64,000 nt of DNA from Mizuhopecten yessoensis (GCF_002113885.1 NW_018408761.1:997580-1061579), one strand, 5' to 3'. Shown: positions 2,520 to 60,843, numbered from the stretch's first letter. Made by a program: numbers and translations. Notes: a model not told the origin generated them from the sequence alone.

Positions 2520-2599
2520 TTTCCTGACAGTATATAGACACAACACGCGAAACTGTCGTGTGACGGCAGCCGATGCGTCGTCAAGTAGCCCCGAGGATG

Positions 2600-2665
2600 A
2601 CGTCACAATAGATAATAATCCGGTGATTAATTGTGACGTGGCCCATTCAGTCTATGACGCAGCCC
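2600..2665 (-). promoter_or_regulatory. Cluster of three TGACG (CRE/ATF-like) motifs, including palindromic TGACGTCA, 90-140 bp upstream of the coiled-coil gene ATG.
   Basis: Motifs gatgacgtcac, tgacgtgg and tgacgcag fall within 60 bp, in the position expected for a proximal promoter. Confidence 0.3.
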
Positions 2666-4779: not shown

Positions 4780-4914
4780 ATGAATTCCTCCATATTCCGA
4801 CGTCTTACTGTTGTGCTTGAGTTCAACTCAATGATGCCATTCAAGGAAAAAGCCAGATGGCGCAAGAAAATTACGGACAATGGTGGGACTGTGTCCTATA
4901 TCATAACAAAGAAG
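4780..4914 (+). CDS. PARP4: PARP4 (vault PARP) ortholog exon 1, BRCT domain N-terminus (MNSSIFRRLTVVLEF...ITDNGGTVSYIITKK).
   Basis: Aligns to the human PARP4 N-terminus as recalled (IFANCIFCL...KENGGKFSFS). Donor GTGAGC at 4915. Confidence 0.75.
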
Positions 4915-5532
4915 GTGAGCATAAACTTAGAATATTGTCTCGGCTACGTATACATATTAGTCTCAAGTAGTATGGTACAAAACATAAGTTACAGGAAACA
5001 CTACCGCTCACAAGGGTAATGCAACTGCACTGCAACATCCTACTTTTGCACAATGTCCTGCAGATTATTGTTTGTTGAGGCTGTCAGAGAAGAGTTATAA
5101 TTAACAGGACTAAAAAAATGGTCCTGAGATTCAACTGAAATCTACTATTTCTAGATGAAGTCTATTGACTGTATGGATATGTGTAAAACTATATATAGCT
5201 ATAGTTTTCCTAAGCAGCAATATAACTTGCATTTCACTCCAGGTGCCACCATTTAGGGAATACAATTTTAATTTTTGTATACTAACCAGCAGGCAGATTT
5301 GTTTCTATCTCGTGAAATTTTCCACCCTGAACACTGTTAGCCAAACTCTTTACGGTTTTGTTTTCTTAACTTTAGAATAAAAACATACATTTTTTGTATA
5401 AATGTTTTTCCATGATTCATATCAAACAAAATTGTGCTTCTGATATTCTTTGTTTATTATTCCTTTGTTAGAAACGTTAACCTTCTCAGATTCTGTGATG
5501 ACATTTTGACAACATTTGTGATTTGTTTACAG

Positions 5533-5731
5533 ATATCCTGCCTGGTTTTATTTAACGACATGTTGGAGAAATCTACATACAAAGTTCGTCAGGCTAGAAG
5601 GTGCAGGGTGCCCGTGTTGAGGGCCGAGTTTATTGACGACAGTCTGCAGCAGCAGCAGAGACTGTCCATGACTACTTATATTGCTGGAGAGGCTATGGAG
5701 GGCAAGAATTTCCAGAAGGGAAAAATAATGA
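5533..5731 (+). CDS. PARP4: PARP4 exon 2, rest of the BRCT domain (ISCLVLFNDMLEKSTYKVRQARRCRVPVLRAEFIDD...).
   Basis: Acceptor tttacag at 5526-5532. The frame is open and phase-0 from exon 1. The donor aGTAAAT is somewhat uncertain, but the phase-1 end fits exon 3. Confidence 0.6.
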
Positions 5732-19608: not shown

Positions 19609-19735
19609 GTTGTGGTTCTCCAGAAATACAGAAATGACAACGACTCGGCGATCGAGGCCAAGTACATCTTCCCACTGGATGACACAGCAGCTGTTTGTGG
19701 GTTTGAAGCATTCATTAATGGAAAACACATTGTTG
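19609..19735 (+). CDS. PARP4: PARP4 exon 14, VIT domain (VVVLQKYRNDNDSAIEAKYIFPLDDTAAVCGFEAFINGKHIVG).
   Basis: EAKYIFPLDD.AAVCGFEAFINGKHIVGE is essentially identical to human PARP4. Confidence 0.95.
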
Positions 19736-20030
19736 GTGAGTCATACATTTGATTATTAAAAACATTTTAAGATAAACATGGTCTGCTTATTAACAGTGTC
19801 CAGAGATTTTAATAATGTTTTGAATCAGGACTGTAGGATTGTACATTTTAATTAGTTGTATTAAACTCTATACCATATCAATGTGAAGCTAGTGAGACAT
19901 GTTTGCCAGCACTTTGTGGGCAAGATTTTGAGTGTCTTAAATATCATACTGAATTCTACACAAATGGTAAATAACTAATTATTGTATGAAAAAGAAAATT
20001 ACCAAATTTTGTGGACTGATTCGTTTTCAG

Positions 20031-33506: not shown

Positions 33507-33677
33507 GATGAACACTCAAGTTCAGAAGGCATGCCGTCCAGGTATTTCTGGTGTTAAAGTGGAGTGGCAGCAAAACATGGACACGACCAACAGACCTCTT
33601 CAGGCCCCTAATCACATCCCAAGTTTGTTTTCTGGGTCACGACAGGTCGTGTATGGCTTTGTACCTAACTGTACACA
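33507..33677 (+). CDS. PARP4: PARP4 exon 23 (MNTQVQKACRPGISGVKVEWQQNMDTTNRPLQAPNHIPSLFSGSRQVVYGFVPNCTQ).
   Basis: Aligns to human MTRLCSPSCHSVSVKWQQLNPDVPEALQAPAQVPSLFLNDRLLVYGFIPHCTQ. Donor CAG|GTGAGA. Confidence 0.9.
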
Positions 33678-35840
33678 GGTGAGAATTTTTATTACACTGA
33701 TGTGCTGGTAAGCAGGGGTTCAACTAGTTATATCTTTGTATGGCTTTGTACCTAACTGCACACAGGTGAGAATTTTTATTACACTGATGTGCTGGTAAGC
33801 AGGGGTTCAACTACTCCCCTCGGTAGGGACAAGTTATATCTTTGTATGGCTTTGTACCTAGCTGTACACAGGTGAGACTTTGTATTACACTGATGTACTG
33901 GTAAGCAGGGGTTCAACTACTCACCTCGTTAGGGACAAGTTATATCTTATCTTTGTATGGCTTTGTACCTAACTGTACACAGGCGAGAATTTTTATTACG
34001 AGGATGTGCTGGTAAGCAGGGGTTCAACTACTCGCCTCGTTAGGGACAAGTTATATCTTTGTATGGCTTTGTACCTGAATTTAGGCAGGGGAGGCTTTGT
34101 ATTACACTGATGTGCTGGTAAGCAGGGGCTCAACTACTCACCTCGGTAGGGACAAGTTATATCTTCATATGGCTTTGTACCTAACTGTACACAGGTGAGA
34201 ATTTTTATTACGAGGATGTGCTGGTAAGCAGGGTTTCAACTACTCACCTCGGTAGGGACAAGTTATATCTATGTATGGCTTTGTACCTAACTGTACACAG
34301 GTGAGACTTTTTATTACGAGGATGTGCTGGTAAGCAGGGGTTCAACTACTCCCCTCGGTAGGGACAAGTTATATCTTTGTATGGCTTTGTACCTGAATTT
34401 AGGCAGGGGAGGCTTTGTATTACACTGATGTGCTGGTAAGCAGGGGTTCAACTACTTATTTCTGGTGTTAAAGTGGAGTGGCAGCAAAACATGGACACGA
34501 CCAACAGACCTCTTCAGGCCCCAAATCACATCCCAAGTTTGTTTTCTGGGTCACGACAGGTCGTGTATGGCTTTGTACCTAACTGTACACAAGTGAGAAT
34601 TTTTATTACGAGGATGTGCTGGTAAGCAGGGTTTCAACTACTCACCTCGGTAGGGACAAGTTATATCTTCATATGGCTTTGTACCTAACTGTACACAGGT
34701 GAGAATTTTTATTACACTGATGTGCTGGTAAGCAGGGGTTCAACTACTCCCCTCGGTAGGGACAAGTTATATCTTTGTATGGCTTTGTGCCTAACTGTAC
34801 ACAGGTGAGACTTTGTATTACACTAATGTGCTGGTAAGCAGGGGTTCAACTACTCACATCGGTAGGGACAAGTTATATCACGCTTTATATCTAGATAAAA
34901 TAAAACGAGTTCATTACAAAGATGACCGGACAAAAAATGATGTATTCAATATCAATATCAATATTGATATATCTTTGTATGGCTTTGTACCTAACTGTAC
35001 ACAGGTAAGACTTTGTATTACACTGATGTACTGGTAAGCAGGGGTTCAACTACTTACCTCGTTAGGGACAAGTTATATCTTTGTATGGCTTTGTACCTAA
35101 CTGTGCACAGGTGAGACTTTGTATTACACTGATGTGCTGGTAAGCAGGGATTCAACTAGTTATATCTTTGTATGGCTTTGTACCTAACTGTACACTGGTG
35201 AGACTTTGTATTACGAGGATGTGCTGGTAAGCCGGGGTTCAACTACTCACCTCGGTAGGGACAAGTTATATCTATGTATGGCTTTGTACCTAACTGTACA
35301 CAGGTGACACTTTGTATTACGAGGATGTGCTGGTAAGCAGGGGTTCAACTACTCCCCTCGGTAGGGACAAGTTATATCTTTGTATGGCTTTGTACCTAAC
35401 TGCACACAGGTGAGAATTTTTATTACACTGATGTGCTGGTAAGCAGGGGTTCAACTAGTTATATCTTTGTATGGCTTTGTACCTAACTGCACACAGGTGA
35501 GAATTTTTATTACACTGATGTGCTGGTAAGCAGGGGTTCAACTAGTTATATCTTTGTATGGCTTTGTACCTAACTGCACACAGGTGAGAATTTTTATTAC
35601 ACTGATGTGCTGGTAAGCAGGGGTTCAACTAGTTATATCTTTGTATGGCTTTGTACCTAACTGTGCACAGGTGAGACTTTGTATTACACTGATGTGCTGG
35701 TAAGCAGGGGTTCAACTACTCACATCGGTAGGGACAAGTTATATCACGCTTTATATCTAGATAAAATAAAACGAGTTCATTACAAAGCTGACAGGACCAA
35801 AAATGATGTATTCAATATCAATATCAATATTGATTATATT
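33651..35840 (+). repeat. Tandem satellite (~108-bp unit, ~20 copies) derived from the 3' end of PARP4 exon 23 plus its GT donor and the start of the intron. It includes a 180-bp partial re-duplication of the exon at 34440-34620 and an 880-bp higher-order period.
   Basis: The unit ctttgtatggctttgtacctaactgtacacagGTGAGAatttttattacactgatgtgctggtaagcaggggttcaactactc.cctcggtagggacaagttatat repeats head-to-tail. Its first copy is the authentic exon end. Confidence 0.85.
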
Positions 35841-41235: not shown

Positions 41236-41382
41236 GAGCCAGAAGAAATTGTAGAGGAACTGTTAAGAAAAGCTTTGATTGCAGAGAGCTTCTCACAACA
41301 GGAGGCAAATAGAACCTATGCCTCTATCTTAGATTACAAATCCTGTCTTCAAAACGATGCCAACAACGAACTCAAAGAAAAG
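41236..41382 (+). CDS. PARP4: Probable PARP4 exon 28 (EPEEIVEELLRKALIAESFSQQEANRTYASILDYKSCLQNDANNELKEK).
   Basis: The frame opens exactly at the acceptor tctgatctag, with an in-frame TAG immediately upstream. 49 codons in phase 0, donor GTAACT. No human similarity. Confidence 0.5.
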
Positions 41383-41440: not shown

Positions 41441-41840
41441 TTTTTATGCACCTACCATAAAATGGGGGGGGGGGGGGGCATATATAGTGTTGCCCATGTC
41501 TGTCCTGTCCCGTTCCGGTTCAATGTAAACACCCGTCCCGTCCCATCCCATCCCGTCACTCTTGTTGGCCCTTGCCACAACTCATACTGATCACTCTTGT
41601 TGGCCCTTGCCACAACTCATACTGATCACTCTAGATCTTGTTGGCCCTTGTTACAACTCATACTGATCATTCTTGTTGGCCCTTGTTACAACTCATACTG
41701 ATCACTCTTGTTGGCCCGGATGTTAGCGTGCAGGGAGTCTTACTGTTGGAGGAAACTAGTGTTCCCGGAGAAAACCCACATGATCGGGTTGGTGACCCAT
41801 ACCTTTTCACGTCTGATTGGGGAATCGAACCCTGGCCGCC
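41441..41840 (+). mobile_element. Repeat family G. Starts ttttatgcacctaccataaaatgg, then (G)18, then catatatagtgttgcccatgtctgtcc, a 35-bp x4.5 internal tandem repeat, and a tRNA T-arm-like motif at the end.
   Basis: The head is shared with the element at 57419. G18 homopolymer at 41461-41478. Confidence 0.45.
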
Positions 41841-41999: not shown

Positions 42000-42087
42000 G
42001 TTATGGAAGCAGCTGAAAGATTTTTCTCCTGTTCTAAAGATGACATTAGCCAAAATATGTTGGCAGAGTTTCGGAAAAGTTTTCCTT
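42000..42087 (+). CDS. Exon encoding VMEAAERFFSCSKDDISQNMLAEFRKSFP, which joins in frame to the ubiquitin-like exon. Either an alternative PARP4 exon or the first coding exon of a nested UBL gene (ATG at 42003).
   Basis: Acceptor ttttcaaag, donor GTAAGT. Phase 0 in, phase 1 out, exactly matching the UBL frame of the next exon. Confidence 0.45.
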
Positions 42088-42549
42088 GTAAGTATTAAAA
42101 TATGTTACTTAATATGTAAATGAGTGATAAGCTAGACAGACTATCCTGTATGTGCAGATTTGGCAGAGAAGTTAACACTCATGTCTCCCACAAACGCTGG
42201 AATGCAATCCCTTGAGCTATTTTAGCATGGATTTTCATTCCTCAGAGCTTTTGCAGCATAGATTTTTCAGAGAACATGTTTTTCTCCAATAATCCAGACG
42301 GAGAATTAAATTGTCTGCAGTGGGTGCTATAGTGACTGGGATGTAACAATCAAGTGAGATGTCACTGTGGTGAAAGATTTAATTAATACACCAGCCCACT
42401 GCACGACACAAACAAATGGAGATTTAGACGGAGCCTTTCCTTCTAATGTCTGTAGTTACTGTGTACCAGATGTTGATAATACTCTTTTCATATCAAAATA
42501 TATTTTGAAAAAAGAATTGATGAAAGTTTTACATTTATTCCCATTGCAG

Positions 42550-42726
42550 TCCCAATCGAGATACACACCCTGACTGGTAGGACTATCCCCGTGAGTGTGT
42601 CCGAGGGCGACACCGTGTCTGACTTGAAGAATAAGATCCATCAGATAGATGGACTTGACCCAGAGCAGCAGAGATTGATTGTTGGTGGGAAACCGCTGAA
42701 GGATCTCGCTGTTCTCTCCGATCTTG
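42550..42726 (+). CDS. Ubiquitin-like domain exon, first part (FPIEIHTLTGRTIPVSVSEGDTVSDLKNKIHQIDGLDPEQQRLIVGGKPLKDLAVLSDL).
   Basis: About 40% identical to ubiquitin residues 1-58 (TLTGKTI, DQQRLIFAGKQL, TLSDY). Acceptor ccattgcag, donor G|GTAATT. Confidence 0.7.
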
Positions 42727-42744
42727 GTAATTATACCCCACATA

Positions 42745-43166
42745 ACGTTGTATAAACGGTGGGTCTGATCCCCATTTGGGACAGAGAGGCGGGGCTTTAA
42801 TATCCTTCTTCTTCCGTTGGGATGAAGGTATTTTGACCAAACTTGAACAGTAGCATCCTATGGGGAAGGGAAATCCATATTAGGTCTAATGCATCCTTGG
42901 GTGAAGGGGACCTAATTTTGTATCAATTGTGGGTCTAACCCTCCTATGGGCAAAGGGGCGGGGCCCAATAGAGGAAACATAGCAAATTCTTCAAATCCTC
43001 CTTTTCCTGTAGGAATGACAAGATTTTGTCCAATTGCATATAAATATAATCCCTGACTAATCATGTAATACATGTACATTTCCAGCATCATCTGGCTATT
43101 TCAACTTCAATTTTGCTAACATTTCCAGGTGAGCTATACAGGTCCTCTGGGCCTCTTGTTTTTTTT
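42745..43166 (+). mobile_element. 5'-truncated type-C HINE-like element, beginning 18 bp after the donor of the UBL exon.
   Basis: C monomers followed by tail CCAGGTGAGCTATACAGGTCCTCTGGGCCTCTTGTTTT. Confidence 0.6.
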
Positions 43167-43382
43167 ATTTTATGAAACTCAACAAATGTAATCTTACACC
43201 ACACTCTGAAGTGTTGCTTTTCTTTTTTTCATCAAATAGTGGGCTGTTCAAATCACTATTCATCTGTGGTCTGTCTTCCATTCATCATTCAGTCCATCCA
43301 TCCATCCATTTGTCCTTAAACAATTCTTGATAGTGCTATTTCTCAGAGAGATCTTTCTCAAGTTTCACCTGAAGGTTCCCTT

Positions 43383-43935
43383 TGTTCCCTAGTTATGCTT
43401 ATCAAATTAAGGGTCCTGACAAAGTGTTGTTATTTTTCGGGTCGATCAAAATTCCAATATGGCCGACATGGCCACCATTTTGAAAAAAAACAATTTCAAA
43501 CTTAAGGTCAAGTTCTGCTGGGCCGATTAAACTTAAACTTTTTAGGAATGATCGACTTATTGTCCTGACAAAGTGTTGTTATATTTCGGGTCAATCAGAA
43601 ATCCAATATGGCCACCACGGCCCCCATTTTGAAAAACTATTTCAAACTTAAAGTCAAGTTCTAATGGGCCGATTAAACTGAAACTTTGTAGGAATGATCG
43701 ACTCATGGTCCTGACAAAGTGTTGTTATTTTTCGGGTCGATCAGAAATACAATTTGGCTGCCATGGCCGCTATTTTGAAAATAACTATTTCAAACTTAAA
43801 ATCAAGTTCTAATAGGCCCATTTAACTGAAACTCTTTCTAAGAATGATCAGCTCATGGTCCTGACAAACTTAAGTTAACGTTATACTTAACTATTTTTTA
43901 CTCAAATTGGTACATATTTCAACAACAACAAAAAA
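43383..43935 (+). mobile_element. Type-B element (three ~170-bp monomers), truncated at both ends.
   Basis: The monomer tcctgacaaagtgttgtt...atggccgccacggccgccattttgaaaaa...cgactcatgg is the same as at 6446 and 56232. Confidence 0.55.
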
Positions 43936-44742
43936 TCTTGGATTTCAACAGTTCAGTTTGTTGTCACTTTTTCCCATAAAGTCCTTAAACAATAAGCATT
44001 GTACTAGTAAATAGGTAAAACAACCAGCTCGCTTTGAAAGAACAGTGTCATACACAGCAGAATGAAGGCTTTGCTCAAAAGTTACCACAATTAAGGTGCG
44101 TTACTGTTAACGTGACTCAATCTTACAGATAAGAGAGAAAAGAAGAATCTTACATAGAATCTATGAAGATAATAAGAATAATATCTTTTATTTAACCAGG
44201 GTTACATATTTAGACAATGTCTAGTTTACAATATGGCGCTGAAGCAAACTATATATACAAGCATGACAACAATTTAAGATAACAGTATAACACTGCAGTA
44301 TATGGTATCATCACAGTCAATGTAACTTGAAGTTAAGTAATCCTAAATTAGAATTTAATAGTGAACACTTGCATATCACACGAGTGTTACTGAATGATAT
44401 GGTTAAAGCATAGTCAAATATACATAATATGTTAATATGGCAAAGCGTAAAAAATGACAAGATATACACCAATTAGTCCAATATAGTGTGTATTAAAATG
44501 AGACAAAGAAGTCGGTGGTGTGAAAAATAATAATTTATGATAGAAATATGATGGTACGATAGTCGGTGTCAAGGTCCCCCGGGGATCTCTTGTTTTAAAA
44601 GACAGAAAGATGTGAAAATGAAAATAAAGCATTAATGGGGAAAATAAAACACGAACTGCTAAAGAGGTTAATGTCGTTTTCTTTAAGGCAGTGGCCAATC
44701 ATATCGTCCACAGTCATATCTAAAAGCAGATCTATGCTTTTT

Positions 44743-46463
44743 AGCTCACCGGCCTGAAGGGCAAGTGAGCTTATGCTATGGCGCGGCGTCAGGCATCCGT
44801 CATCTTTTCCTAAAAAACGCTACTTGTCATAAACGACTGAGCAGATTTTGACCAAATTTGGTCAGAAGCATCCTTATGGGAAGGGGAACAAATTTTGTAT
44901 AAATGGTGGGTCTGGCCCCCTAGGGGCTGAGGGGTGGGGCCCAATAGGGAAAATATAGCAAATTCTTTAAAATCCTTCTTCTTTTGTAGGAATAAAAGGA
45001 TTGGTTCCATATTTGGTCTGAAGCATCCTTGGGGGAAGAGGAACCAATTTTGTATAAATGGGGGGTCTGGCCCCTGAGGGGCCTGAGCGACAGGCCAAAT
45101 AGGGGAAACATAGCAAATTCTTTAAAATCCTTCTTCTGTAGGAATGAAAGGATTTGTTCCATATTTAGTCTTAAGCATCCTTGGGTTAAGGGGAACCAAT
45201 TTTGTATAAACTGTGGGTCTGGCCCCTTTGGGGCCTGAGCGACGGGGCCCAATAGGGGAAACATAGCAAATTCTTTAAAATCTTTCTTCTGCAGGAATGA
45301 AAGGATTTGTTCCATATTTGGTCTGAAGCATCCTTGGGTGAAGTGGAACCGATTTTGTATAAGCAAGGGGTCTAGCCCCCATGGATCTGAGGGGCGGGGC
45401 CAAAAGGGGTCAATTGCGCTATATTGATTTAAGCGACTTCTTCTCTGGAACTAAGAGATGGATATCAACCATATTTGACTGGAAGCATCCCTCTGTAGTG
45501 GAGATTCACAATTGTACAAATGGTTGGGCTGACATCCCAGGGGGCTGAGGTGCGGGTCCAAAAGGGCGCAATTTGGCTATATTGGTGTACGACTTCTTCT
45601 GTAGCATTATACCATGGATATCGATCATATTTGGTCAGAAGCTTTCATGGGAAGTAGGGATTCAAAATTGTACAAATGGTGGGGCTGACCCCCCGTGCTA
45701 AGGGGTGGGGCCAAAAAAAGTTTATTACTTGGAAATGGTTGAGATCCCAACCATATAACCATATATATAATTGTGGAGTATGAAGAGAAGCATTCACATT
45801 TGCTTCAAGGATGGCCTAGGGTCTGGCCCCACCCTTTGAGACATAGTCCCTGGGTCATATCTTTGAAACGATTGAGATCCGCACCCCAGAACTATATATA
45901 CAAATGCTTGGCATAAAGAGACAAAAGTAGTCATGGTATTAAAATAGACCCTGGGGTCTGACCGAACCCCTAGGGACCTAGTTTCTTAGTCACAGCTTCG
46001 AAACAGTTGAGATCCCCACCCTATAACTATGCATATATACAATTGCTGAGTATAAAGAGATGAATGCACATATGCTTCCAGGATGGCCTTGGGGTCTGCC
46101 CAAACTTTGCAGACTTAACCCCTGGGTAAATATAACTTTGAAACAGTTGAGATCCCCACCCCAAGACTATAAATACAAATGCTAGACAAAAAGAGACGAA
46201 TATAGTCATGATATTATAATTGATCCTGGCGTCTGGCCACAACCCGAGGGATCTAGTTTCTGAGTCACAGCTTGGAAACAGTTGAGATCCCCACCCCATT
46301 ACCATACATTAAATTGCTGGGCATGAAAAATCTAATACAGACATACTACAAGAATTGACATTGGGGTCTGGCATATACCCTTGGATCTCATTTGGAGAAT
46401 ATTTTGCTTTTTGATTGCTTAGATATTCAGGTGAGGAATTCAGGCCCTCTGTGCCTCTTGTTT
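44743..46463 (+). mobile_element. Composite HINE-like element, copy 1. It runs head hairpin, type-C monomers, a ~180-bp transition monomer, ~150-bp type-D monomers (gaaacagttgagatccccaccc...) and tail. It lies in the intron just upstream of the terminal UBL exon.
   Basis: Head tttttAGCTCACCGGCCTGAAGGGCAAGTGAGCTTATGC, tail CAGGTGAGGAATTCAGGCCCTCTGTGCCTCTTGTTT. The same architecture is repeated twice downstream. Confidence 0.7.
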
Positions 46464-46593
46464 ACCATAAGAATACATCATATTTGATTGAGAGGATGTG
46501 CTTTTAGAGGTGGCAGCTGTTTTGATACAACGTTATGTGAGGGCATGAGTTAGCCTCTATATAACAATTGTATTTTTTTTCTATATTCTTCAG

Positions 46594-46700
46594 ATCTGGA
46601 GTATAATGCTGTCTTCCTGTTACCAAGGCTGCGAGGGGGACTTAGTTTTGGTCTCAAGGAAGATTTGAAAACAAAGCGTATTCTCGCGGAAAACGTATGA
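46594..46700 (+). CDS. Ubiquitin-like domain terminal exon (DLEYNAVFLLPRLRGG + LSFGLKEDLKTKRILAENV, stop TGA at 46698-46700).
   Basis: Completes the UBL with the RLRGG C-terminal motif. The phase-1 junction with 42726 restores the frame. Acceptor ctatattcttcag. Confidence 0.65.
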
Positions 46701-46780
46701 TATGACAATAAGACATAAAATGTGGATTCCACTCTCAAAAATCTAAGGGTGGGGTAGAAAGTGGTTTATTGGACATTTTT

Positions 46781-48636
46781 AGCTCACCTGCCCGAACGGC
46801 AAGTGAGCTTATGCCATGGCGCGGCGTCCAGCATCCTTCAACTTTTCCTAAAAATCGCTACTAGTCATAAACGACTGAGCAGATTTTGACCAAATTTGGT
46901 CAGAAGCATCCTTATGGGAAGGGGAACAAATTTTGTATAAATGGTGGGTCTGGCCCCCCTGGTGGCTGAGGGGTGTGGCCCAATAGGGAACACATAGTAA
47001 ATTCTTTAAAATCCTTCTCCTTCTGTAGGATTGAAAGGATTTGTTCCATATTTGGTCTGATGCATCCTTAGAGAAAGAGGAACCAATTTTGTATAAACCG
47101 TGGGTCTGGACCCCGAGGGGCCTGAGGGGTGGGGCCCAATAGGGAACACATAGTAAATTCTTTAAAAACCTTCCTCTTCTGTAGGAATGAAAGGATTTGT
47201 TCCATATTTGGTCTGAAGCATCCTTAGGGAAAGAGGAACCAATTTTGTATAAACCGCGGGTCTGGCCCCCGAGGGGCCTGAGGGGTGGGGCCCTATAGGG
47301 ATCACATAGTAAATTCTTTAAAATCCTTCCTCTTCTGTAGGAATAAAAGGATTTGTTCCATATTTAGTCTGAAGCATCCTTGGGTAAAGGGGAACCAATT
47401 TTTTATAAACCATGGGTCTGGCCCCACAGGGGCCTGAGCGACGGGGCCCAGTATGGGAAACTGAACAATTTCTTTAAAATCCTTCTTCTCTGTAGGAATG
47501 AAAGGATTTGTTCCATATTTGGTCGGAAGCATCCTTCGGTGAAGGGGAACCAATTTTGTATAAACAAGAGGTCTGGCCCCCAGGAACTTGAGGGGCGGGG
47601 CCAAAAGGGGGCAGTTGCGCTATATTAATTTAAGCGACTTCTTCTCTGGAACTAAGGGATAGATATCAACCATATTTGACTGAAAGCATCCCTCGGAAGA
47701 GGAGATTCAAAATTGTACAAATGGTTGGGCTGACCCCCCGTGCTAAGGGGTGAGGGTTGCTATTAACGACTTATTCTGTAGAATTATGCTAAGGATATCA
47801 ATCATATTTGGTCAGAAGTATTCATGGGAGGTAGGGATTCAAAATTGTACAAATGTTTGGGCTGACCCCCCTGTGCTAAGGGGTTGGGCCAAAAAAGGTT
47901 TATTACTTGGAAATGGTTGAGATCCCCGCGGTATAACCATATATACAATTGTGGAGTATAAAGGGAAGCATGCACATTTGCTCCCAGGATGGCCTAGGGT
48001 CTGGCCCCACCCTTTGAGACATAGTCCCTGGGTCATAACTTTGAAATGATTGAGATTTCCACCCCAGAACTATATATACAAATGCTTGGCATATAGAGAC
48101 AAAAGTAGTCATGGTATTAGAATAGACCCTGGGGTCTGACCGAACCCCTAGGGACCTAGTTTCTTAGGCAAAGCTTCGAAACAGTTGAGATCCCCACCCT
48201 ATAACCATGCATATATACAATTGCTGAGTATGAAGAGATGATTGCACATATGCTTCCAGGATGGCCTTGGGGTCTGCCCCACCCTTGCAGACTTAACCCC
48301 TGTGTCATAACTTTGAAACAGTTGAGATCCCCACTTTAAAACTATATACAAATGCTGGGCTTAAAGAGAAGAAACCAGTCATGATATTAAGAATTGATCC
48401 AGGGGTCTGGCCACAACCCTAGGGATCTAGTTTCTGAGTCACAGCTTGGAAACAGTTGAGATCCCCACCCCATAACCATACATTAAATTGCTGGGCATGG
48501 AAAATCTAATACAGACATACTACAAGAATTGGCATTTGGATCTGGCATATTCCCTTGGATCTCATTTGGAGAATATTTTGCCATGATTGCTTAGATATCC
48601 AGGTGAGCGATTCAGGCCCTCTGGGCCTCTTGTTTT
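46781..48636 (+). mobile_element. Composite HINE-like element, copy 2, beginning 81 bp after the stop codon of the UBL exon.
   Basis: Head tttttAGCTCACCTGCCCGAACGGCAAGTGAGC, tail CCAGGTGAGCGATTCAGGCCCTCTGGGCCTCTTGTTTT. Confidence 0.7.
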
Positions 48637-48768
48637 TTAAATCTACTCTTCATGAATGATAGGTTTCTTCAGTACCTTTAAATTGTGAATGCAATTACCC
48701 TGATGTCTCCCATTCACCACTGGGAAGGGGGAAATTCTGCTACATTTCCTATGGTTATAACAGCTTTT

Positions 48769-50482
48769 AGCTCACCTGGTCCGAAGGACCAGGGTGAGCT
48801 TATGCCATACCATGGCATCCGTCGTCCGTACGTACGTCAACAATTTCTTTAAACGACTTCTTCTTCTTAACCACTGGTTGGAATTAAACTAATTTTGACT
48901 GGAAGCATCCCTAGGTGGTTGGGATTCAAAATTGTACAAATGGTGGGGCTGACTCCCCAGGGGGCTGAGGGGTGGGGCCAAAAGGGGTCAATTTGCCCAT
49001 ATTGCTGTAAGCGACTTCTTCTCTGGAACTAAGAATTGGATATCAACCATATTTGACTGGAAGCATCCCTAGGTGGTGGTGATTAAAAATTGTACAAATG
49101 GCGGGGCTGACTCCCCAGGGGGCTTAGGGGGGGCCAAAAGGGGGCAATTTTGCTATATTGCTACAAACGACTTCTTCTGTAGAACTGTGCACTGGATATC
49201 AATCATATTTGATCAAAAGCATTCCTGGGAGGCAGGGATTTAAAATTGTACAAATGGTGTGGCTGACCCCCCAGGGGGCTGAGGGGCAGGGCCAAAAAGG
49301 GTATTTGGCTATACTGCTTTAAGTGACTTCTTCTCTGGAACTAAGTGATGGATATCAACCTTATTTGACTGGAAGCATCTCTAGGTGGTGGAGATTCAAA
49401 ATTGTACAAACGGTTGGGCTGACCCCCCAGGGGGCTGAGGGGCGGGGCCAAAAGGGGGCAATTTGGTTATATTGCTATAAATGACTTCTTCTGCAGAACT
49501 ATGCCATGGATATTGATCATATTTGGTCGGAAGTATTCATGGGAGGCAGGGATTCAAAATTGTACAAATGGTGGGGCTGACCCCCCGGGCTAAGGGGTGG
49601 GGCCAATAAAATGTATTACTTGGAAATGGTTGAGATCCCCACCATATAACCATATATACAATTGCTGAGTATAAAGAGAAGAATGCACATTTGCTTCCAG
49701 GATGTCCCTAGGGTCTGGCCCCACCCTTGGAGACATAGTCCCTGGGCCATAACTTTAAAACGGTTGAGATCCCCACCCCAAAACTATATATACAAATGCT
49801 GGGCATAAAGAGACGAATGCAATCATGATATCAGAATAGACCCTGGGGTCTGACCGAACCCCTAGGGACCTAGTTTCTTAGTCACAGCTTGGAAACAGTT
49901 GAGAGCCCCACCCTATAACCGTATATATACAATTGCTGAGTATAAAGAGATGATTGCACATATGCTTCCAGGTTGGCCTTGGGGACTGCCCCACCCTTGG
50001 AGACTTAACCCCTGGGTCATAACTTTGAAATGGTTAATATCCCCACCCCAAAACTATATATACAATTGTTGGGCATAAAGAGACGAATGCAGTCATGACA
50101 TTAGAATTGATCCCAGGGTCTGCCCCACCCTTGCAGACTTGGCCCCTGGGTCATAACTTTGAAACGGTTGAGATCCCCACACCAAAACTTTATATACAAA
50201 TGCTTGGCAAAAAGAGACAAATGCAGTCACGATATTAGAATCGATCCTGGGGTCTGGCCACAACTCTAGGGACCTAGTTTCTGAGTCAAAGCTTGGAAAC
50301 AGTTGAGATCCCCACCCCATAACCATACATAAAATTGCTGGGCATGAAAAATTTAATATAGCTATGCTACAAGGATTGGCCTTGGGGTCTGGCATATTCT
50401 CTTGATCTCATTTGGAGAATAGTTTGCCATGATTGCTTAGGTATCCAGGTGAGCGATACAGGCCCTCTGGGCCTCTTGTTTA
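48769..50482 (+). mobile_element. Composite HINE-like element, copy 3.
   Basis: Head cttttAGCTCACCTGGTCCGAAGGACCAGGGTGAGC, tail CCAGGTGAGCGATACAGGCCCTCTGGGCCTCTTGTTT. Confidence 0.7.
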
Positions 50483-50559
50483 TTTATCCTCAGCAGAAAA
50501 TAATTCAGTTCAATTTTTGTTATGGCATGGCATCGATATAGAATCTATTTTAGTTGTTG

Positions 50560-51000
50560 TACAACATAAAGATTTGTGGTTAAATTCTAAGCTATGAGAT
50601 ATGAAGTCTCTCTTACTCACCGGTACTCAGTATAACATGAAGATTTGTGGTTAAATTCTTAGCTATGAGATATGAAGTCTCTCTTACTCACCGGTACTTA
50701 GTATAACATGAAGATTTGTGGTTAAATTCTTAGCTATGAGATATGAAATCTCTTTTACTTGCTGTATAACATGAAGATTTGTGGTTAAATTCTTAGCAAT
50801 GAGATATGAAATCTCTTTTACTTGCTGTATTATATGGAGATTTGTGGTTATATTCTCAGCTATATGATATAGAATCTCTTTTACTTGGTGTATAATATGG
50901 AGATTTGTAGTTATATTCTCAGCTATATGATATAGAATCTCTTTTACTTGCTGTATAACATGTAGATTTGTGGTTAAATTCTCAGACATGTGATATAGAA
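50560..51000. repeat. ~63-bp minisatellite x7 (atgaagatttgtggttaaattcttagctatgagatatgaa.tctct.ttact...), 230 bp upstream of the low-complexity ORF.
   Basis: Direct reading. The minus-strand ORF 50684-50989 is an artifact of it. Confidence 0.8.
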
Positions 51001-51232
51001 TATCCTTTACATGGGGAAAATATGAAGTTTGTTGGTAAATTATTAGCTATTTTTAGTGAACATTGATTAATCAGCCTTAATATTTTTACTTTTGTCAGTT
51101 AAACTATATTTAGTCACTATACTCAATGTAAACTTCTTAATAATACCCACAAAAACCACAGAAGCAATGATTCATGAGTTTACTATTGTACAGTACAGGT
51201 ACATGTGAAGTATTAACATTTCTGTATTTCAG

Positions 51233-51459
51233 GACATGAATGAGTATGATCAGATATATGGTAAGAAGGTGCATACGGAAAAGGACAAAAGCTGTACTGA
51301 TGATGGAAAAAACCCGGTGAAGATGTCCTCATTGTTTTCTCCTTTTAGGCAATCCTTACGAATGATGGCTCCAAGGAAACAGTTAGCAACCAAAGCTGCC
51401 AGAAAATCTGCACCTGCAAACTTTGATGAAAATGAGGAGGAGCAGAATGAGGATGACAG

Positions 51460-51497
<38 letters not shown>

Positions 51498-54337
51498 TTG
51501 AAAAGATGGGCAACTTTAGCTGCATGGCACTTCCAGATGACAACGTGGTTGATGATGCTACGAACAAGAAACAGGAAGTGTCAGATGTAGGAAGAATACC
51601 AGACTCTCCACTCTCAGCAACACAGTTTGGCCCCTTGTCTCCAAAATGTTCAGATTCATTTGGTACAAACTTTGAAAAATTTGAAATCTCTCAGTATTTA
51701 GATGAAGACATGGAGATTGATTTAGATACTGAAGACCCGGCATTCCTCATTCTCACTTCTGAAATATCTGACATATTTTCACCTTCAATGGCAGGCCATT
51801 CTCAGGACACTCCAGCCTATATATCAACCTCCCCATCTTACAAACCAACTTCCCCATCCTATTCGCCCACTTCCCCATCTTACAAACCAACTTCCCCATC
51901 CTATTCGCCCACCTCCCCATCTTACAAACCAACTTCCCCATCCTATTCGCCCACCTCCCCATCTTACAAACCAACTTCTCTATCCTATTCGCCCACTTCC
52001 CCATCTTACAAACCAACTTCTCCATCCTATTCACCAAATAGAAGAGCACGAAGAGCCAAATCAACATTTGAGGATTTCCAACATGAATCAACATCAAACA
52101 ATAAAGATTTTGTGGTTTCAGGTTCAAGACAAGCAAAGTCAAGCAGCACATCTAGTGAACATGGTTTGTGTGGAGCTCCAGTGCAAGCAGAACCAGGCAG
52201 TAAACCAAGTCAGAGCTTCAATTTTAATGCTTCGCTACAAACAGCATCAAGCAATGAACCAACACAAAGTTTGGGATTGGGGGCTCCAAACCTAGCAGAA
52301 CTAGGCGGTAAACCAAGTCAGGGGTTCAATTTTAGTGCTCCTCTAGTAACAGCATCAAGAAATATATCAACACAAAGTTTGGGATTGGGGGCTCCAAACC
52401 TAGCAGAACCAAACACAATGCCAAGTCAAGGGTTTTCCTTTGGAGCTCGAATGCAAACAACTCAAAGCGCTTCACCAGCCGAAGGTTTCAGTTTTTCTCA
52501 GAATCAAACATTGCAGAGCATTACCAGTAAAGGAAGCCATTGTTTTGGATTTGGGACTTCAAAACCAGCCGGAGCAAGCAGAACGACAAGTCAAGGGTTT
52601 TCCTTTGGCGCTCAAATGCAGTCCCAACGATGCAATATACCAACCCAAGATTTCTATTTTGGAGCTTCAAATTCAGCAGGTTTTGGAGATGACGGTGACA
52701 GACGTGGTGGTTATGGAGGTGTCAGTGTTAGACCTGGTGGTTATGGAGATGACAGTGACAGACGTGGTGGTTATGGAGGTGTCAGTGTTAGACGTGGTGG
52801 TTATGGAGGTGTCAGTGAGGGACTTGGTGGTTATGGAGGTGTCAGTGTTAGACGTGGTAGTTATGGAGGTGACAGTGTTAGATGTGGTGGTTATGGAGGT
52901 GTCAGTGAGGAATGTGGTGGTTATGGAGGTGTCAGTGAGGGACTTGGTAGTTATGGAGGTGTCAGTGAGGGACTTGGTAGTTATGGAGATGACGGTGTCG
53001 GACGTGGTGGTTATGGAGATGACAGTGTCGGACGTGGTGGTTATGGAGGTGACAGTGTCGGAGGTGATGGTTATGGAGGTGTCAGTGAGGGATTTGGTGG
53101 TTATGGAGGTGACAGTGAGGGATGTGGTGGTTATGGAGGTGTCAGTGTTAGATGTGGTGGTTATGGAGGTGTCAGTGAGGGACGTGGTGGTTATGGAGGT
53201 GACAGTGAGGGACGTGGTGGTCCTAGACTTGCTGGTTCTAAAGATGGACATGTTTCTTACATAGAAACAGCACCAACATTTACATATTTGAAGGATCTTG
53301 ACTTGAATTTAGCAAAACATGATCCAAAAACTAGGATATTGAAGGAAAATGACAGAAGACCTTCCAGTGTAACAGAGAAGGATCTGCCTTCACAGCCTTT
53401 CAGACATGTACAGGATAAAATGTTCCCACCAGACTTTGATGAATCCTTATTACCTAAACAAAAGAGAAAAATTCCTCCTGTTGGAAGAGGAGGTTCTGGA
53501 TTCACTGCAAGGAATGACCAGGGTCCTGCTGAAACAACCAAAGAACAAGGTCGAAGGTCATTAAAGTCAGTCAGAGGCGCAATGCATGGTGCAAGATCAA
53601 GAGACAGAAATAGGGAACAATCTCGTGAGCTTATTGTGCTGGATAAGAGTAAAAAACTAAGTTTGAGTCATGACAGAAGGCGGAGGAGTTTGAGTAGAAG
53701 TTTGAGTCGAGACAGAAGACAGAGGAGTTTGAGTAGAAGTTTGAGTCGAGACAGAAGGCGGAGGAGTTTGAGTAGAAGTTTGAGTCGAGACAGAAGGCGG
53801 AGGAGTTTGAGTAGAAGTTTGAGTCGAGGAAGGGGGAGAAGAGACTTGGAAAGATGTTACAGTAGAGATAGAGCAAGAAAGGAAAATAAAAAAATGCACA
53901 GATCAAGTGGAAATAATGATACAAACAGTAGGAATAAAAATAGGGACAAAGCAGGAAGCAAAATAGACAGAGATCCTGCAAGAGAAAGTAAGAAACAGAT
54001 AAAGCATAAAAATGAAAAGAAGGAGCAAACAAAGGCTGATGAACAGGTTGTCAAAACATTTGGGAAAAAAGGGAAGAAAAGGGAACAGACAAGGGATGAT
54101 GAAGAGATTGTCAAAACTGGAGGGAAGAACCTGTCAGGAAAGTTGGAATATGATGATCATGAGAAAATGGACTTTACAGTGGACATGGCACCAACTTTGA
54201 AAGTCTGGGATGTAACATCAGAGACAGGCAAGGACATTGTGAAATTCATAAAGTATATTTCTGATTCAATCTTCTTTTATATACAAAAGATCTGTAATTT
54301 TCTACAAATTCAAGTGAGCTTAAGTGAACTTTCTTGA
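51233..54337 (+). CDS. 3.1-kb open reading frame (giant exon or intronless gene) encoding a modular low-complexity protein. Its modules are a histone H3(15-31) mimic, a poly-Asp tract, RNAPII-CTD-like heptads, FG repeats, GGYGG repeats, an RS domain and a K/E tail. It is probably the large low-complexity exon of the PARP4 ortholog.
   Basis: Uninterrupted 1033-codon ORF. The acceptor tttcag at 51227-51232 lies immediately after an in-frame TGA at 51206. Phase 0 is compatible with PARP4 exons 27 or 28. Human PARP4 also has a large S/P-rich low-complexity region at this position. Confidence 0.7.
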
Positions 54338-57960: not shown

Positions 57961-58913
57961 ATAGAACACAGAAACTAATTTCACATGGCAGTGGGGGCAT
58001 TTATGTCTTATAGACATTTTCTCGTTATAAGTAAGATACACTGAGAAATAGTTAGTCCATCTCACTTTTCAGTGAGGTACGTTAAGAAACAGGGTCACTA
58101 CCTGTGTTACTTATCAGTAAGGTACATCAAGAAGTATTTAGTCGGTCCTCAGTTGAGAAATAAAACACTCGATCCTACTGATTTAATGTGTTTACTGGTA
58201 TTAGATCACCTTGCCGATCAAGTGAGCATATGAAATGGAGAATTGTCCATCTTTCAAGTTTCATCTAAAACCTTATCTTGATCCGACTGCCCCGTATATA
58301 CTGTAAAACTTTAGAGCACTGATTGAAAGCAGACTTCAAGTTTGGTGCAATACAATGATCGGGTCTAGTGGAGAGGTCCTGCACTGGAAACTAACTCTTG
58401 AGTAACTCTGTAAAAGTCGCATTTTTGTGTCGCCTGCAACACGAGGCGACATATAGGTATTACTTTGTCTGCGTCGTCAGAAACAAGGTTTCGGTGTGAT
58501 AACTTGAGTTCCTTTGGGTTGATTGAACTCGACTTTGGTACACGTATGGCATACCAACAAAACTCAGACAGGTACGTATTTCAGAAGTTTACATGCATCT
58601 TTAGTGGAGTTATGCCCCTTTTATTGCCAGATAAGGGCATTGTGTTGTAAATTTATGCAAGAACTTTTTTATTTTATCAATTCCTTTCAAATTTTGTACG
58701 GTAATGCTAGAAGCAATAATGTTCAACATATATTATGGGTTTTTCTGTCGAGTTTCAACATTCCGCGTTTTGGCATATCTGTTTACGTGATAACTCAAGC
58801 CAAAACACTTTTCCTACTAAAAGCGCTGTGCAGGCGACACATCCACTTCCGTGGAATTCTTGTTTATTTCTGTGTTGTTGGAAAATCATTTTGTATATTC
58901 TTGTGTTTCACAG

Positions 58914-59013
58914 GGACAATATTGGGAACTGACTCCAGAGCTGTGTCAAACCCTCGGTGTTTTCTACATCAAGGTCACCAACCAGCTGAAGCTACATGGC
59001 CTGTACTCCTTAG
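58914..59013 (+). CDS. PARP4: PARP4 C-terminal exon (GQYWELTPELCQTLGVFYIKVTNQLKLHGLYSL).
   Basis: WELTPEL aligns to WKLTPEL of the human vault-interaction region. Acceptor gtgtttcacag, donor G|GTATGT. Confidence 0.8.
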
Positions 59014-59399
59014 GTATGTATACAGACCCTTGAGGGTTCTCGTAATTATGTCACAATATACGTCTTTGGTCATACAGCTCACACGTCTTGAGCTCAATAT
59101 GGCTTGACATCCATCGTCTATCAGCCATCTGTCAACTTTTTATTTAAATGACTCCTTGTCCAGAAAAGTTAAACTGATTTCAATTAAATATGATGTGGAC
59201 AATTCCTTGTAAATGGGACTCAACATTGTATCAACTTAGTGTGTGGTTGTTTTGCCTACTTGCCAACTTTTTGAAATTTCCATGGGGGAGATAATGCATG
59301 CTCAGAATGAAAACCATTAATAAAATGTGTGTATCATCAGGTCATAGAAAATAGGTAGAGTTTAGCAAATTAAATGGTTAAAAATCATTTTTGGGTCCA

Positions 59400-60130: not shown

Positions 60131-60475
60131 CAATAAATACATAACAATGTTATATAAATACACAAAAGCATTCTGAGAATATAGAATAATCAGCTTTAAA
60201 TTGAAGTATGCTATTACAGTTCAGATAATCTTTGAATTACTGTATATTGTTCAATGCAGTTTAACTTAAGCCATTTTGCCCTCGGTAATGACAGCAAATT
60301 TATCATGACAGCAACTATTGATACACGCTATACTATACATAGCCATTGCATGAGAGGGCAAAAATAACACTTGGTGAAAAATTTTACAAGTAAATGGCGA
60401 CAGTTTCCCAGCTGTAAACAGTATGGTTTTACAGTATGAAATGTAGTCACTTGTAAAAATAAATCTGTGTTGTAG

Positions 60476-60843
60476 GAAGCCATGCTGCATCCTTAGGAGA
60501 AAACATGGTAGCAACATATCTTGTGGTCCTCAAGATAATACAGATCATTTACCAGCAGATGAACAGAAAACCACTGAAATTGGACCTGGCCGGATTTGCG
60601 TCTTTGGACTTGATGAACTGGACATTGAATTGTAACAATACCCTGTCCATCAAGTTAGATACTACGCGGTCAACAGGATGCTCAGCGGTGTTGTATCTCC
60701 ACAATGAAATATCAGGTGTTCACAAATGGTTGACCGAGAAGCGTGGTGAACATGAACGACTCTGTAGGCAGTTAGAACTAGGACATTCCTTACAAACTTT
60801 CACTTGGAACCTTTTCTGTGCTCTCAACGAAAAGCCAGTCTGA
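60476..60843 (+). CDS. PARP4: PARP4 terminal exon (GSHAASLGENMVATYLVVLKIIQ...KWLTEKRGEHERLCRQLELGHS...NEKPV*), stop at 60841-60843.
   Basis: Aligns to the human C-terminus ATMLVLQFIRT...EWVRRTEGQYPSICPRLELGND. The phase-1 junction with the previous exon is consistent. Confidence 0.8.

Follow-up and report, generated by a model that had tools for sequence, protein, structure and literature searches.

A ubiquitin-like domain predicted to lie in the middle of PARP4 in the bivalve Mizuhopecten yessoensis

PARP4, which is linked to vaults, is the least understood of the PARPs. In a 64,000-nucleotide (nt) stretch of the genome of the bivalve Mizuhopecten yessoensis (GCF_002113885.1 NW_018408761.1:997580-1061579; hereafter, the window), the PARP4 locus contained three small exons, designated e1, e2, and e3, which encoded a linker and a ubiquitin-like domain (UBL) with an RLRGG ending that was followed, after 19 residues, by an in-frame stop codon. 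This arrangement raised the question of whether the UBL forms the end of a short PARP4 isoform, belongs to a separate gene nested in a PARP4 intron, or is an internal part of PARP4. As described below, e1 to e3 probably encode a linker and an integral UBL within the full-length PARP4 of this bivalve. The positions of the features are listed in Table 1.

The UBL exons and the PARP4 reading frame

The joined UBL peptide matched the Pfam ubiquitin family (PF00240) with an E value of 1.1e-15 and 57.5 bits, compared to a cut-off of 25.4. Its best solved-structure match was ubiquitin (about 55 bits and E=3e-14 per single domain), and ubiquitin chains were the top PDB matches. In a BLASTP comparison, the domain was 44.6% identical to ubiquitin across 74 residues, and it was nearer to ubiquitin than to NEDD8 (35%) or ISG15 (34%); the reference sequences (ubiquitin, NEDD8, ISG15, FUBI, and human PARP4) had been entered by hand. 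The residues aligned with L8, K27, K29, I44, K48, and R72-G76 of ubiquitin were kept, K6, K11, and K63 were lost, one residue was deleted, and L71 was replaced by Pro. In the case of the hydrophobic patch formed by L8, I44, and V70, the first two residues were identical and V70 was replaced by Leu. By these sequence comparisons, the exons encode a genuine ubiquitin-family domain, and the 44.6% identity suggests that it would adopt a beta-grasp fold.

The joined translation of e1, e2, and e3 was VMEAAERFFSCSKDDISQNMLAEFRKSFPFPIEIHTLTGRTIPVSVSEGDTVSDLKNKIHQIDGLDPEQQRLIVGGKPLKDLAVLSDLDLEYNAVFLLPRLRGG-LSFGLKEDLKTKRILAENV-stop, with the TGA at 46698-46700; divided into its parts, the same peptide read VMEAAERFF...FRKSFP-FPIEIHTLTGRTIPVSVSEGDTVSDLKNKIHQIDGLDPEQQRLIVGGKPLKDLAVLSDLDLEYNAVFLLPRLRGG-LSFGLKEDLKTKRILAENV. 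All three exons began at polypyrimidine-AG acceptors. The borders of e1 were the acceptor ttttcaaag/GTTATG and the donor CCTT/gtaagt, and those of e2 were the acceptor ttgcag/TC and the donor CTTG/gtaatt. The intron between e2 and e3 fell after the residue aligned to ubiquitin Y59. The e3 acceptor (cttcag/AT) scored 4.7 with a home-made, ad hoc splice matrix that used generic frequencies of the author's own choice; all splice scores given here were obtained with this matrix. The UBL was completed in e3, which encoded its final strand and RLRGG, followed by 18 K/E-rich linker residues (LSFGLKEDLKTKRILAEN). Together, the three exons formed a cassette of 366 nt (88+177+101), or 122 codons, that was open and had all six splice dinucleotides intact.

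The exons upstream of the cassette were defined by homology. The tblastn matches to the PARP4 protein of Sinanodonta woodiana (P0015) were collinear with the window from 4792 to 40579, and splice sites were picked between the homology-defined coding cores. When joined in this manner, the 25 predicted exons from 11131 to 46694 formed a 3,285-nt frame without a stop codon, and Pfam identified the PARP (2.8e-24), VIT (8.7e-38), VWA_3 (2.2e-29), and ubiquitin (2.1e-14) families in its product. Thus, the VIT and vWA domains of the ITIH-like region were on the same stop-free chain of exons as the UBL. An N-terminal BRCT domain was found in the joined exons at about 4780-5727 (Pfam E=6e-8). The H-Y-E catalytic triad was also present (H in LMHAS, Y in GIYFS, and E in DDEFVVY) and aligned with the human residues. 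The hand-entered human PARP4 sequence served only to locate exons and was later replaced by database orthologs, and the triad was cross-checked with the Sinanodonta protein. By every sequence criterion tested, the gene upstream of the UBL was PARP4, the vault PARP.

PARP4 exon 41236-41382 closed in phase 0 (..NNELKEK/gtaact) and read directly into the exon at 42000. Because the PARP4-UBL frame was stop-free over 25 exons and the same exon structure was found in two other species (see below), the UBL exons are not a product of chance. These results agreed with several claims that an earlier note on this DNA had made from the sequence, namely that the locus is PARP4, that the UBL is about 40% identical to ubiquitin with K27 and K48 conserved, that it ends in RLRGG plus 19 residues and a stop, and that it is in frame with the upstream PARP4 exons. 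The comparison with Pfam families that the note had proposed also yielded ubiquitin.

Table 1. Positions of the features, counted from the first nucleotide of the window
Feature	Position	Strand	Description
Upstream PARP4 coding exons	4780-41382	+	BRCT, PARP regulatory/catalytic, VIT, vWA, and post-vWA exons; start ATG at about 4780
Linker exon e1	42000-42087	+	88 nt; phase 0 to 1; encodes VMEAAERFFSCSKDDISQNMLAEFRKSFP
UBL exon e2	42550-42726	+	177 nt; phase 1 to 1; ubiquitin positions about 2-58
UBL exon e3	46594-46694 if spliced (46594-46700 read through)	+	101 nt if spliced
GTATGA	46695-46700	+	Candidate phase-0 donor AAC/GTATGA (46694/46695), or Val plus TGA stop of a read-through/short isoform
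Probable intron, mostly repeats	46695-51232	+	90% matches repeats elsewhere in the window
Large low-complexity PARP4 exon	51233-54334	+	1,034-codon open frame; acceptor tttttcag/GATATG; phase 0; 54334 is the open-frame end
First MVP-interaction-domain exon in open frame	58821-59030	+	..GQYWELTPELCQTLG..; ortholog profile E=1.7e-4, profile positions 57-100
Last MVP-interaction-domain exon and likely PARP4 stop	60463-60840	+	Same profile, E=7.4e-4, positions 98-178

PARP4 downstream of the UBL and in other species

The similarity to Sinanodonta PARP4 continued past the UBL. Following the match that covered the UBL (42549-42740), the alignment resumed at 51242-51412, 51968-52024, and 58914-59012, and all of these matches were collinear. 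The start of the exon at 51233 was collinear with Sinanodonta residues 1752-1896, residues 2149-2182 matched the 58821-59030 frame (tblastn E=0.001), and the C-terminal residues 2189-2291 aligned to 60496-60825. In addition, a profile of the 190 C-terminal residues, made from 47 PARP4 orthologs, was run on 2,099 open frames of the window; it matched, weakly, exactly two of them, the two MVP-interaction-domain exons in Table 1, which were in the right order on the + strand. Pfam, including PF26156 (PARP4_MVP-ID), yielded no family on the C-terminal exons of the window or on the large exon. Because of the collinear Sinanodonta alignment and the matches to the C-terminal profile, PARP4 was taken to span about 4.8-60.8 kb, with the UBL exons in the middle.

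The same domain was found in PARP4 proteins of other species. The annotated orthologs came from an exhaustive search of representative proteins, and the gene models of the relatives are predictions. The Sinanodonta woodiana protein (KAL3858028.1; 2,293 residues; gene span, 162 kb), for which the precomputed Pfam domains are BRCT, PARP, VIT, VWA, and ubiquitin, had ..LVLRLRGG at residue 1385, followed by about 900 more residues that ended in the MVP-interaction domain. The 1,924-residue Biomphalaria glabrata protein (A0A2C9KRG3) had the BRCT, PARP, VIT, and VWA domains followed by ubiquitin at 1400-1470. The Mytilus coruscus sequences (CAC5400317-19), which were 62% identical to the window, had an e1-like linker (VMENVVKF..), then ..MVLRLRGGPDPF.., and then a long Q-, FG-, and G-rich region. 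In a further homolog, P0076, which came from an intron-poor eukaryote, a single 2.5-kb open frame on metagenome scaffolds contained VWA_3, ubiquitin (..LRLRGGP..), and a faint match to PARP4_MVP-ID. Because this is a single open frame, the internal position of its UBL needs no splicing model. In total, the polypeptide went on for hundreds of residues past RLRGG in Mytilus coruscus, Sinanodonta, Biomphalaria, P0076, P0088, and P0121.

The exon structure was conserved as well. In the Mytilus coruscus genome, the homolog of e1 was exactly 88 nt (L008 18839-18926), and the first UBL exon (L008, about 19726-19911) had its intron at the same position and in the same phase as in the window. The second half of the UBL and at least 100 codons after GG formed one uninterrupted genomic exon (L008 22239-22589). 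A relative represented by genome contigs in ENA (L001, L006, and L007; hereafter, the ENA relative) had the same layout: its homolog of PARP4 exon 28 ended in phase 0, its homolog of e1 was exactly 88 nt (L001 17199-17286; VYENLGKF...) and contained no in-frame ATG, and its UBL exon (L001 18485-18676) matched that of the window in phases and intron position. Because the 88-nt e1 and the phase 1-1 UBL exon were conserved in the window, the ENA relative, and Mytilus coruscus, the exon structure supported an integral domain. The check for the same terminal exons in other bivalves that the earlier note had suggested was thus positive with respect to the domain, e1, and the intron phases, and negative with respect to position, as the domain was internal rather than terminal.

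The ENA relative had a second exon for the first half of a UBL 10 kb further on (L006 19202-19387, which is the same as L007 9990-10175). The two first-half exons were 192 and 186 nt in length, both were phase 1-1 with the intron placed as in the window, and they could be mutually exclusive exons or part of a tandem di-UBL. Only one recognizable second-half exon was found (L007 13796-13865; 70 nt); it ended in phase 2 with ..ELTFHMVLRLRGNGDSHS, followed by CAG/GTAAAA, and no second-half exon was found for the first UBL exon. Matches to SLEVHSTLELVV as the second half of that exon were set aside because they were located in a tandem repeat. Nothing recognizable as a downstream PARP4 exon was found within 6.4 kb after the e3 homolog of this relative. 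Two tandem UBLs, the first of which lacked GG, were present in homolog P0088.

Short metagenome contigs (L002-L005) contained a PARP4 fragment that ended before the UBL region. Sea-urchin PARP4 had no ubiquitin domain according to Pfam, and the UBL motif was not found in the PARP4 proteins of eel, sea urchin, Nematostella, and Cavenderia with a regular expression and a local hidden Markov model. A word-indexed protein search with the joined exon-28, e1, and UBL peptide produced no match, and a composite query produced only generic ubiquitins.

The conservation of e1 also bears on the proposal that an independent precursor of about 124 residues starts at ATG 42003 inside a PARP4 intron. In support of such a nested gene, an ATG at 42003-42005 was in frame, its counterpart was present in Mytilus coruscus (VMENVV..), and GG followed by a short tail and a stop is a precursor-like configuration. 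The ATG was one codon past the e1 acceptor, though, and exon 42000 started at this polypyrimidine-AG acceptor, as expected of an internal exon. The acceptor, the 88-nt length, and the phase-0 start of e1 were conserved in three species, both the ENA relative and Sinanodonta (EVYSTLDDF) had Tyr in place of the Met, neither e1 nor the UBL exon of the ENA relative contained an in-frame ATG, and four independent annotations joined these exons to PARP4 sequence. Because ATG 42003 was not conserved, we consider a nested gene, as put forward in the earlier note, extremely unlikely.

The Mytilus coruscus annotation contained two PARP4 gene models (L008 1-8941 and 10001-45212), one with a 1,450-residue BRCT-PARP-VIT-VWA product and the other with a 923-residue product that contained the UBL. 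Hence, the UBL region is where PARP4 has been divided between two gene models in at least one mussel annotation. A related lesson for annotation is that the gene should not be assumed to end where a stop follows the UBL.

Splice donor or stop after RLRGG

In the orthologs, the UBL was directly seen to be embedded in a larger polypeptide. In the window, its N-terminal junction followed from the reading frame, and its C-terminal junction is the part of the model that we infer. The most likely transcript would contain the junctions 41382>42000, 42087>42550, 42726>46594, and 46694>51233. Exon ends 41382 and 46694 were both phase 0, and acceptor 51233 was also phase 0, so the frame would be kept. 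With the presumed 46694>51233 splice, the 19-residue tail would be the start of a charged linker, the TGA would be intronic, and the protein would be roughly 2,600 residues long by our estimate, with BRCT, PARP, VIT, vWA, the UBL, a low-complexity region, and the MVP-interaction domain in that order. The UBL would thus be inserted in a flexible region, with the ITIH-like VIT-vWA body on one side and, on the other, a disordered tail that has the vault (MVP)-binding domain at its end.

The interval between 46694 and 51233 looks like an intron because 90% of it consisted of repeats, as expected from a transposon-swollen intron. Its only unique parts were the 81 nt after e3, the 182 nt leading up to 51233, and two short stretches in between. 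These features fit an intron that transposons filled, or created, by inserting into a region that forms one long exon in Mytilus.

Several observations weighed against an internal UBL in the window. The donor AAC/GTATGA, which was the only phase-0 donor that kept the UBL intact, had no G at -1 and scored -1.0, compared to 1.2-8.6 for the other 25 donors of the gene. Skipping e1 to e3 (41382>51233) would preserve the frame as well. The exon after GG also varied, being 101 nt and phase 0 in the window, 70 nt and phase 2 in the ENA relative, and long in Mytilus, and because of these differences the 46694>51233 junction was not transferable by homology. Lastly, the Plakobranchus ocellatus model (GFO43316.1), which is flagged as partial, ended in RLRGGGEIT, four residues after RLRGG.

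A rival reading, for which the weak donor, the frame-preserving skip, and the Plakobranchus model also speak, is an alternative 3' end, in which the UBL exons are left unspliced at 46694, the transcript ends in the following intron, and a PARP4 protein of about 1,395 residues ends in RLRGG plus 19 residues. The long, vault-binding isoform would then skip e1 to e3, the short form could coexist with the internal-domain form, and a ubiquitin-type protease could trim the short form and expose GG. The scores of the cassette splice sites, which were rather low for the e1 acceptor (1.0) and the e2 donor (1.2) in addition to the donor at 46694, are typical of alternative exons. Furthermore, the stop came at once, within the candidate donor, an AATAAA was present at 47342, and read-through after the e3 homolog of the ENA relative also stopped at once (AGG TAA). 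Stops just inside introns are the rule, however, and carry no weight, and the AATAAA at 47342 was the first after the UBL, the 640 nt beyond the stop being free of canonical poly(A) signals. The ENA relative had a good donor (CAG/GTAAAA) right after its UBL, the motif of which was RLRGN rather than RLRGG. The protein continued in every relative that could be examined after GG, except for the partial Plakobranchus model, and the tail of the window (LKEDLKTKRILAEN) resembled an internal linker (LQENLKTKVQKKKK) located after the UBL in Mytilus coruscus. Taking both sides together, we view this alternative 3' end as possible but rather unlikely. The earlier note had proposed a short PARP4 isoform of about 1,380 residues that ends in a UBL precursor, and this claim survived in part: the only in-phase donor was weak and the read-through ended after 19 residues, but PARP4 continued to 60.8 kb and the domain was internal in the relatives.

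The same low splice scores and the frame-preserving skip would also be expected of a relic cassette, that is, of decaying UBL exons that are skipped in this species as an unspliced remnant of a domain that the relatives still use. The window UBL was among those most diverged from ubiquitin (44% identity, compared to 41% for Biomphalaria, 36% for Plakobranchus, and 58-78% for the other six PARP4 UBLs), with its one-residue deletion and the Pro at 71. On the other hand, its 122 codons were open over three exons with intact splice dinucleotides, it retained L8, I44, K27, K48, and RLRGG, and it still matched Pfam at E=1e-15. A relic is therefore highly unlikely in our view. The reading with an integral UBL in full-length PARP4 remained the one that we prefer.

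Possible roles of the UBL and comparison with known systems

An alignment of 10 sequences, consisting of PARP4-type UBLs plus ubiquitin, was used to examine which residues were conserved. L73, R74, and G75 were invariant, and R72 and G76 were present in 9/10 sequences. K27 was also invariant, and K48 was kept in most of the sequences. The diglycine was found in 9/10 sequences, the exception being RLRGN in the ENA relative. The residue that followed GG was Leu in the window and Biomphalaria and Pro in five of the nine PARP4 UBLs (Mytilus, Sinanodonta, P0076, P0088, and P0121).

Ubiquitin fusion precursors (polyubiquitin, UBA52/eL40, RPS27A/eS31, and FAU) likewise have an RLRGG-ended ubiquitin fold with further polypeptide attached directly to it, the arrangement on which ubiquitin-specific proteases act. 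In these precursors, however, ubiquitin is N-terminal or in tandem and is always released, whereas the PARP4 UBL was preceded by about 1,300 residues. NEDD8 and ISG15 precursors have LRGG and a short extension, as did the read-through product of the window, but they are small, independent proteins, each with a start codon of its own. Because the PARP4 UBL had no conserved start codon and was internal in the relatives, it is unlikely to be a stand-alone modifier precursor. An embedded position is shared with the ubiquitin folds of OASL, Rad23, parkin, and UHRF1, which serve as interaction modules within larger, non-conjugated proteins; in OASL, for example, C-terminal UBLs that imitate polyubiquitin are joined to an enzyme fold. 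The diglycine is usually lost from ubiquitin-like domains that are embedded, and those of the four proteins have generally lost it, whereas the PARP4 UBLs kept RLRGG almost without exception. Because GG was retained, the PARP4 UBL would be atypical for an integral UBL.

Most likely, the PARP4 UBL would act as a built-in ubiquitin moiety, that is, as a docking signal for ubiquitin-binding partners or the ubiquitin-chain machinery. Ubiquitin-specific proteases cut ubiquitin that is followed by any residue except proline, and Pro after GG was reportedly poorly cleaved in the ubiquitin-fusion experiments of Bachmair, Finley and Varshavsky in 1986. An uncleavable ubiquitin moiety is a recognized signal for chain extension. 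In the lineages with GG-Pro, the UBL is probably not removed; in those with GG-Leu, the site may be open to a ubiquitin-specific protease, which could uncouple the enzymatic body from the vault anchor. An extension of this idea is that the internal RLRGG is a working processing site. Cleavage after Gly-Gly would then free the disordered, vault-binding C-terminal half and leave an ADP-ribosyltransferase of about 1,375 residues with an activatable GG, which could be conjugated as a giant ubiquitin-like modifier, and the form in GG-Pro species would be uncleavable and constitutive. We regard this scenario as improbable. More generally, this PARP4 variant has a near-canonical ubiquitin with a conserved RLRGG exactly at the hinge that joins the enzymatic body to the vault-targeting tail, where it could be a regulated cleavage site or a built-in signal that ties ADP-ribosylation to ubiquitin pathways.

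Human PARP4 (vPARP) has the same BRCT, PARP with H-Y-E, VIT, and vWA domains, a long disordered region, and a C-terminal MVP-interaction domain (PMC10450202, PMC2964712). It differs from the predicted window protein in that it has no UBL, as the earlier note had stated and as the domain scheme in PMC10450202 confirmed; the window UBL was an insertion some 150 residues past the conserved SIVTPYTSFVAIEER segment. In addition, the disordered region of the window was about 1,000 residues and contained unusual motif arrays. The mollusc PARP4 models (KAL3858028.1, A0A2C9KRG3/A0A2C9KRH5, CAC5400317-19, and GFO43316.1) shared the UBL site, an (L/K/Q)RLRGG ending, an e1-like linker before the UBL, and a charged low-complexity region after it. 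They differed from the window in the flanking PARP4 segment (52-62% identity) and, in the case of Mytilus and Sinanodonta, in having Pro rather than Leu after GG. Moreover, the end of the UBL and the following region were in one long exon in Mytilus, unlike the short exon and repeat-filled interval of the window.

A paper on the evolution of the PARP family (PMC2964712) and a domain re-annotation (PMC10450202) list no ubiquitin-like domain for the vPARP clade, and our literature searches on PARP4, which covered ubiquitin-like domains, invertebrates, and bivalves, yielded no description of a BRCT-PARP-VIT-vWA-UBL architecture. UniProt has automatically named the Mytilus fragments "Ubiquitin-like domain-containing protein." The novelty that the earlier note had expected was therefore limited to the absence of a describing paper in our search, as PARP4 models with a UBL were already in public protein sets. 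Judged from these predicted proteins, UBL-bearing PARP4 is a lineage-specific variant of PARP4, which was found in bivalves, gastropods, and at least one further eukaryote lineage.

The large exon 51233-54334 (+) consisted of arrayed motifs that are copies of low-complexity regions well known from nuclear proteins. Histone H3 A15-A31 was reproduced exactly over 17 residues, and the exon further contained a run of poly-Asp, at least five heptads like those of the RNA polymerase II C-terminal domain (CTD), FG repeats (GFSFGA), about 20 GGYGG[VD]S repeats, and RSLS/RS repeats. Sinanodonta PARP4 also had H3-like and CTD-like motifs, as did a Mytilus isoform (GGRQKQTARKSCGCKFPRIQLSAKPAS). Because ARKS is a preferred context for serine ADP-ribosylation in H3, the H3-like stretch may serve as an acceptor in cis or mimic a histone.

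Several minor observations were made in the relatives. In the ENA relative, an open frame between the two UBL exons (L006 14487-14678 and 15031-15570) matched Pfam Nup98_GLEBS. Its stretch ..QCISAMKEYENKSLE.. was very close to the Rae1-binding motif of Nup98, and pieces of it recurred in an apparent short-period tandem repeat; no counterpart of this frame was found in the window. A stretch similar to the C-terminal helices of 14-3-3 proteins was present at the C-terminus of P0017 and at residues ~195-235 of P0121, before the UBL, and may be a fusion artefact or a real module. The Mytilus coruscus model began with five tandem copies of the MLHQLTARAVIRDYEDG exon.

Tandem repetition was also observed in the window. 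A G13 run was found in the intron before e1, together with a ~34-nt unit, cactcttgttggcccttgccacaactcatactgat, that was repeated about five times in tandem (41460-41700, +). In the region 33800-35700 (+), the end of exon 33508-33678 (..YGFVPNCTQ..) recurred in tandem as numerous degenerate copies, of which the one at 34467-34601 was almost complete. Upstream of PARP4, a 459-codon open frame with a charged, coiled-coil-like sequence was located at 1227-2606 (-). No Pfam family matched it, and it probably belongs to a neighbouring gene as one of its exons.

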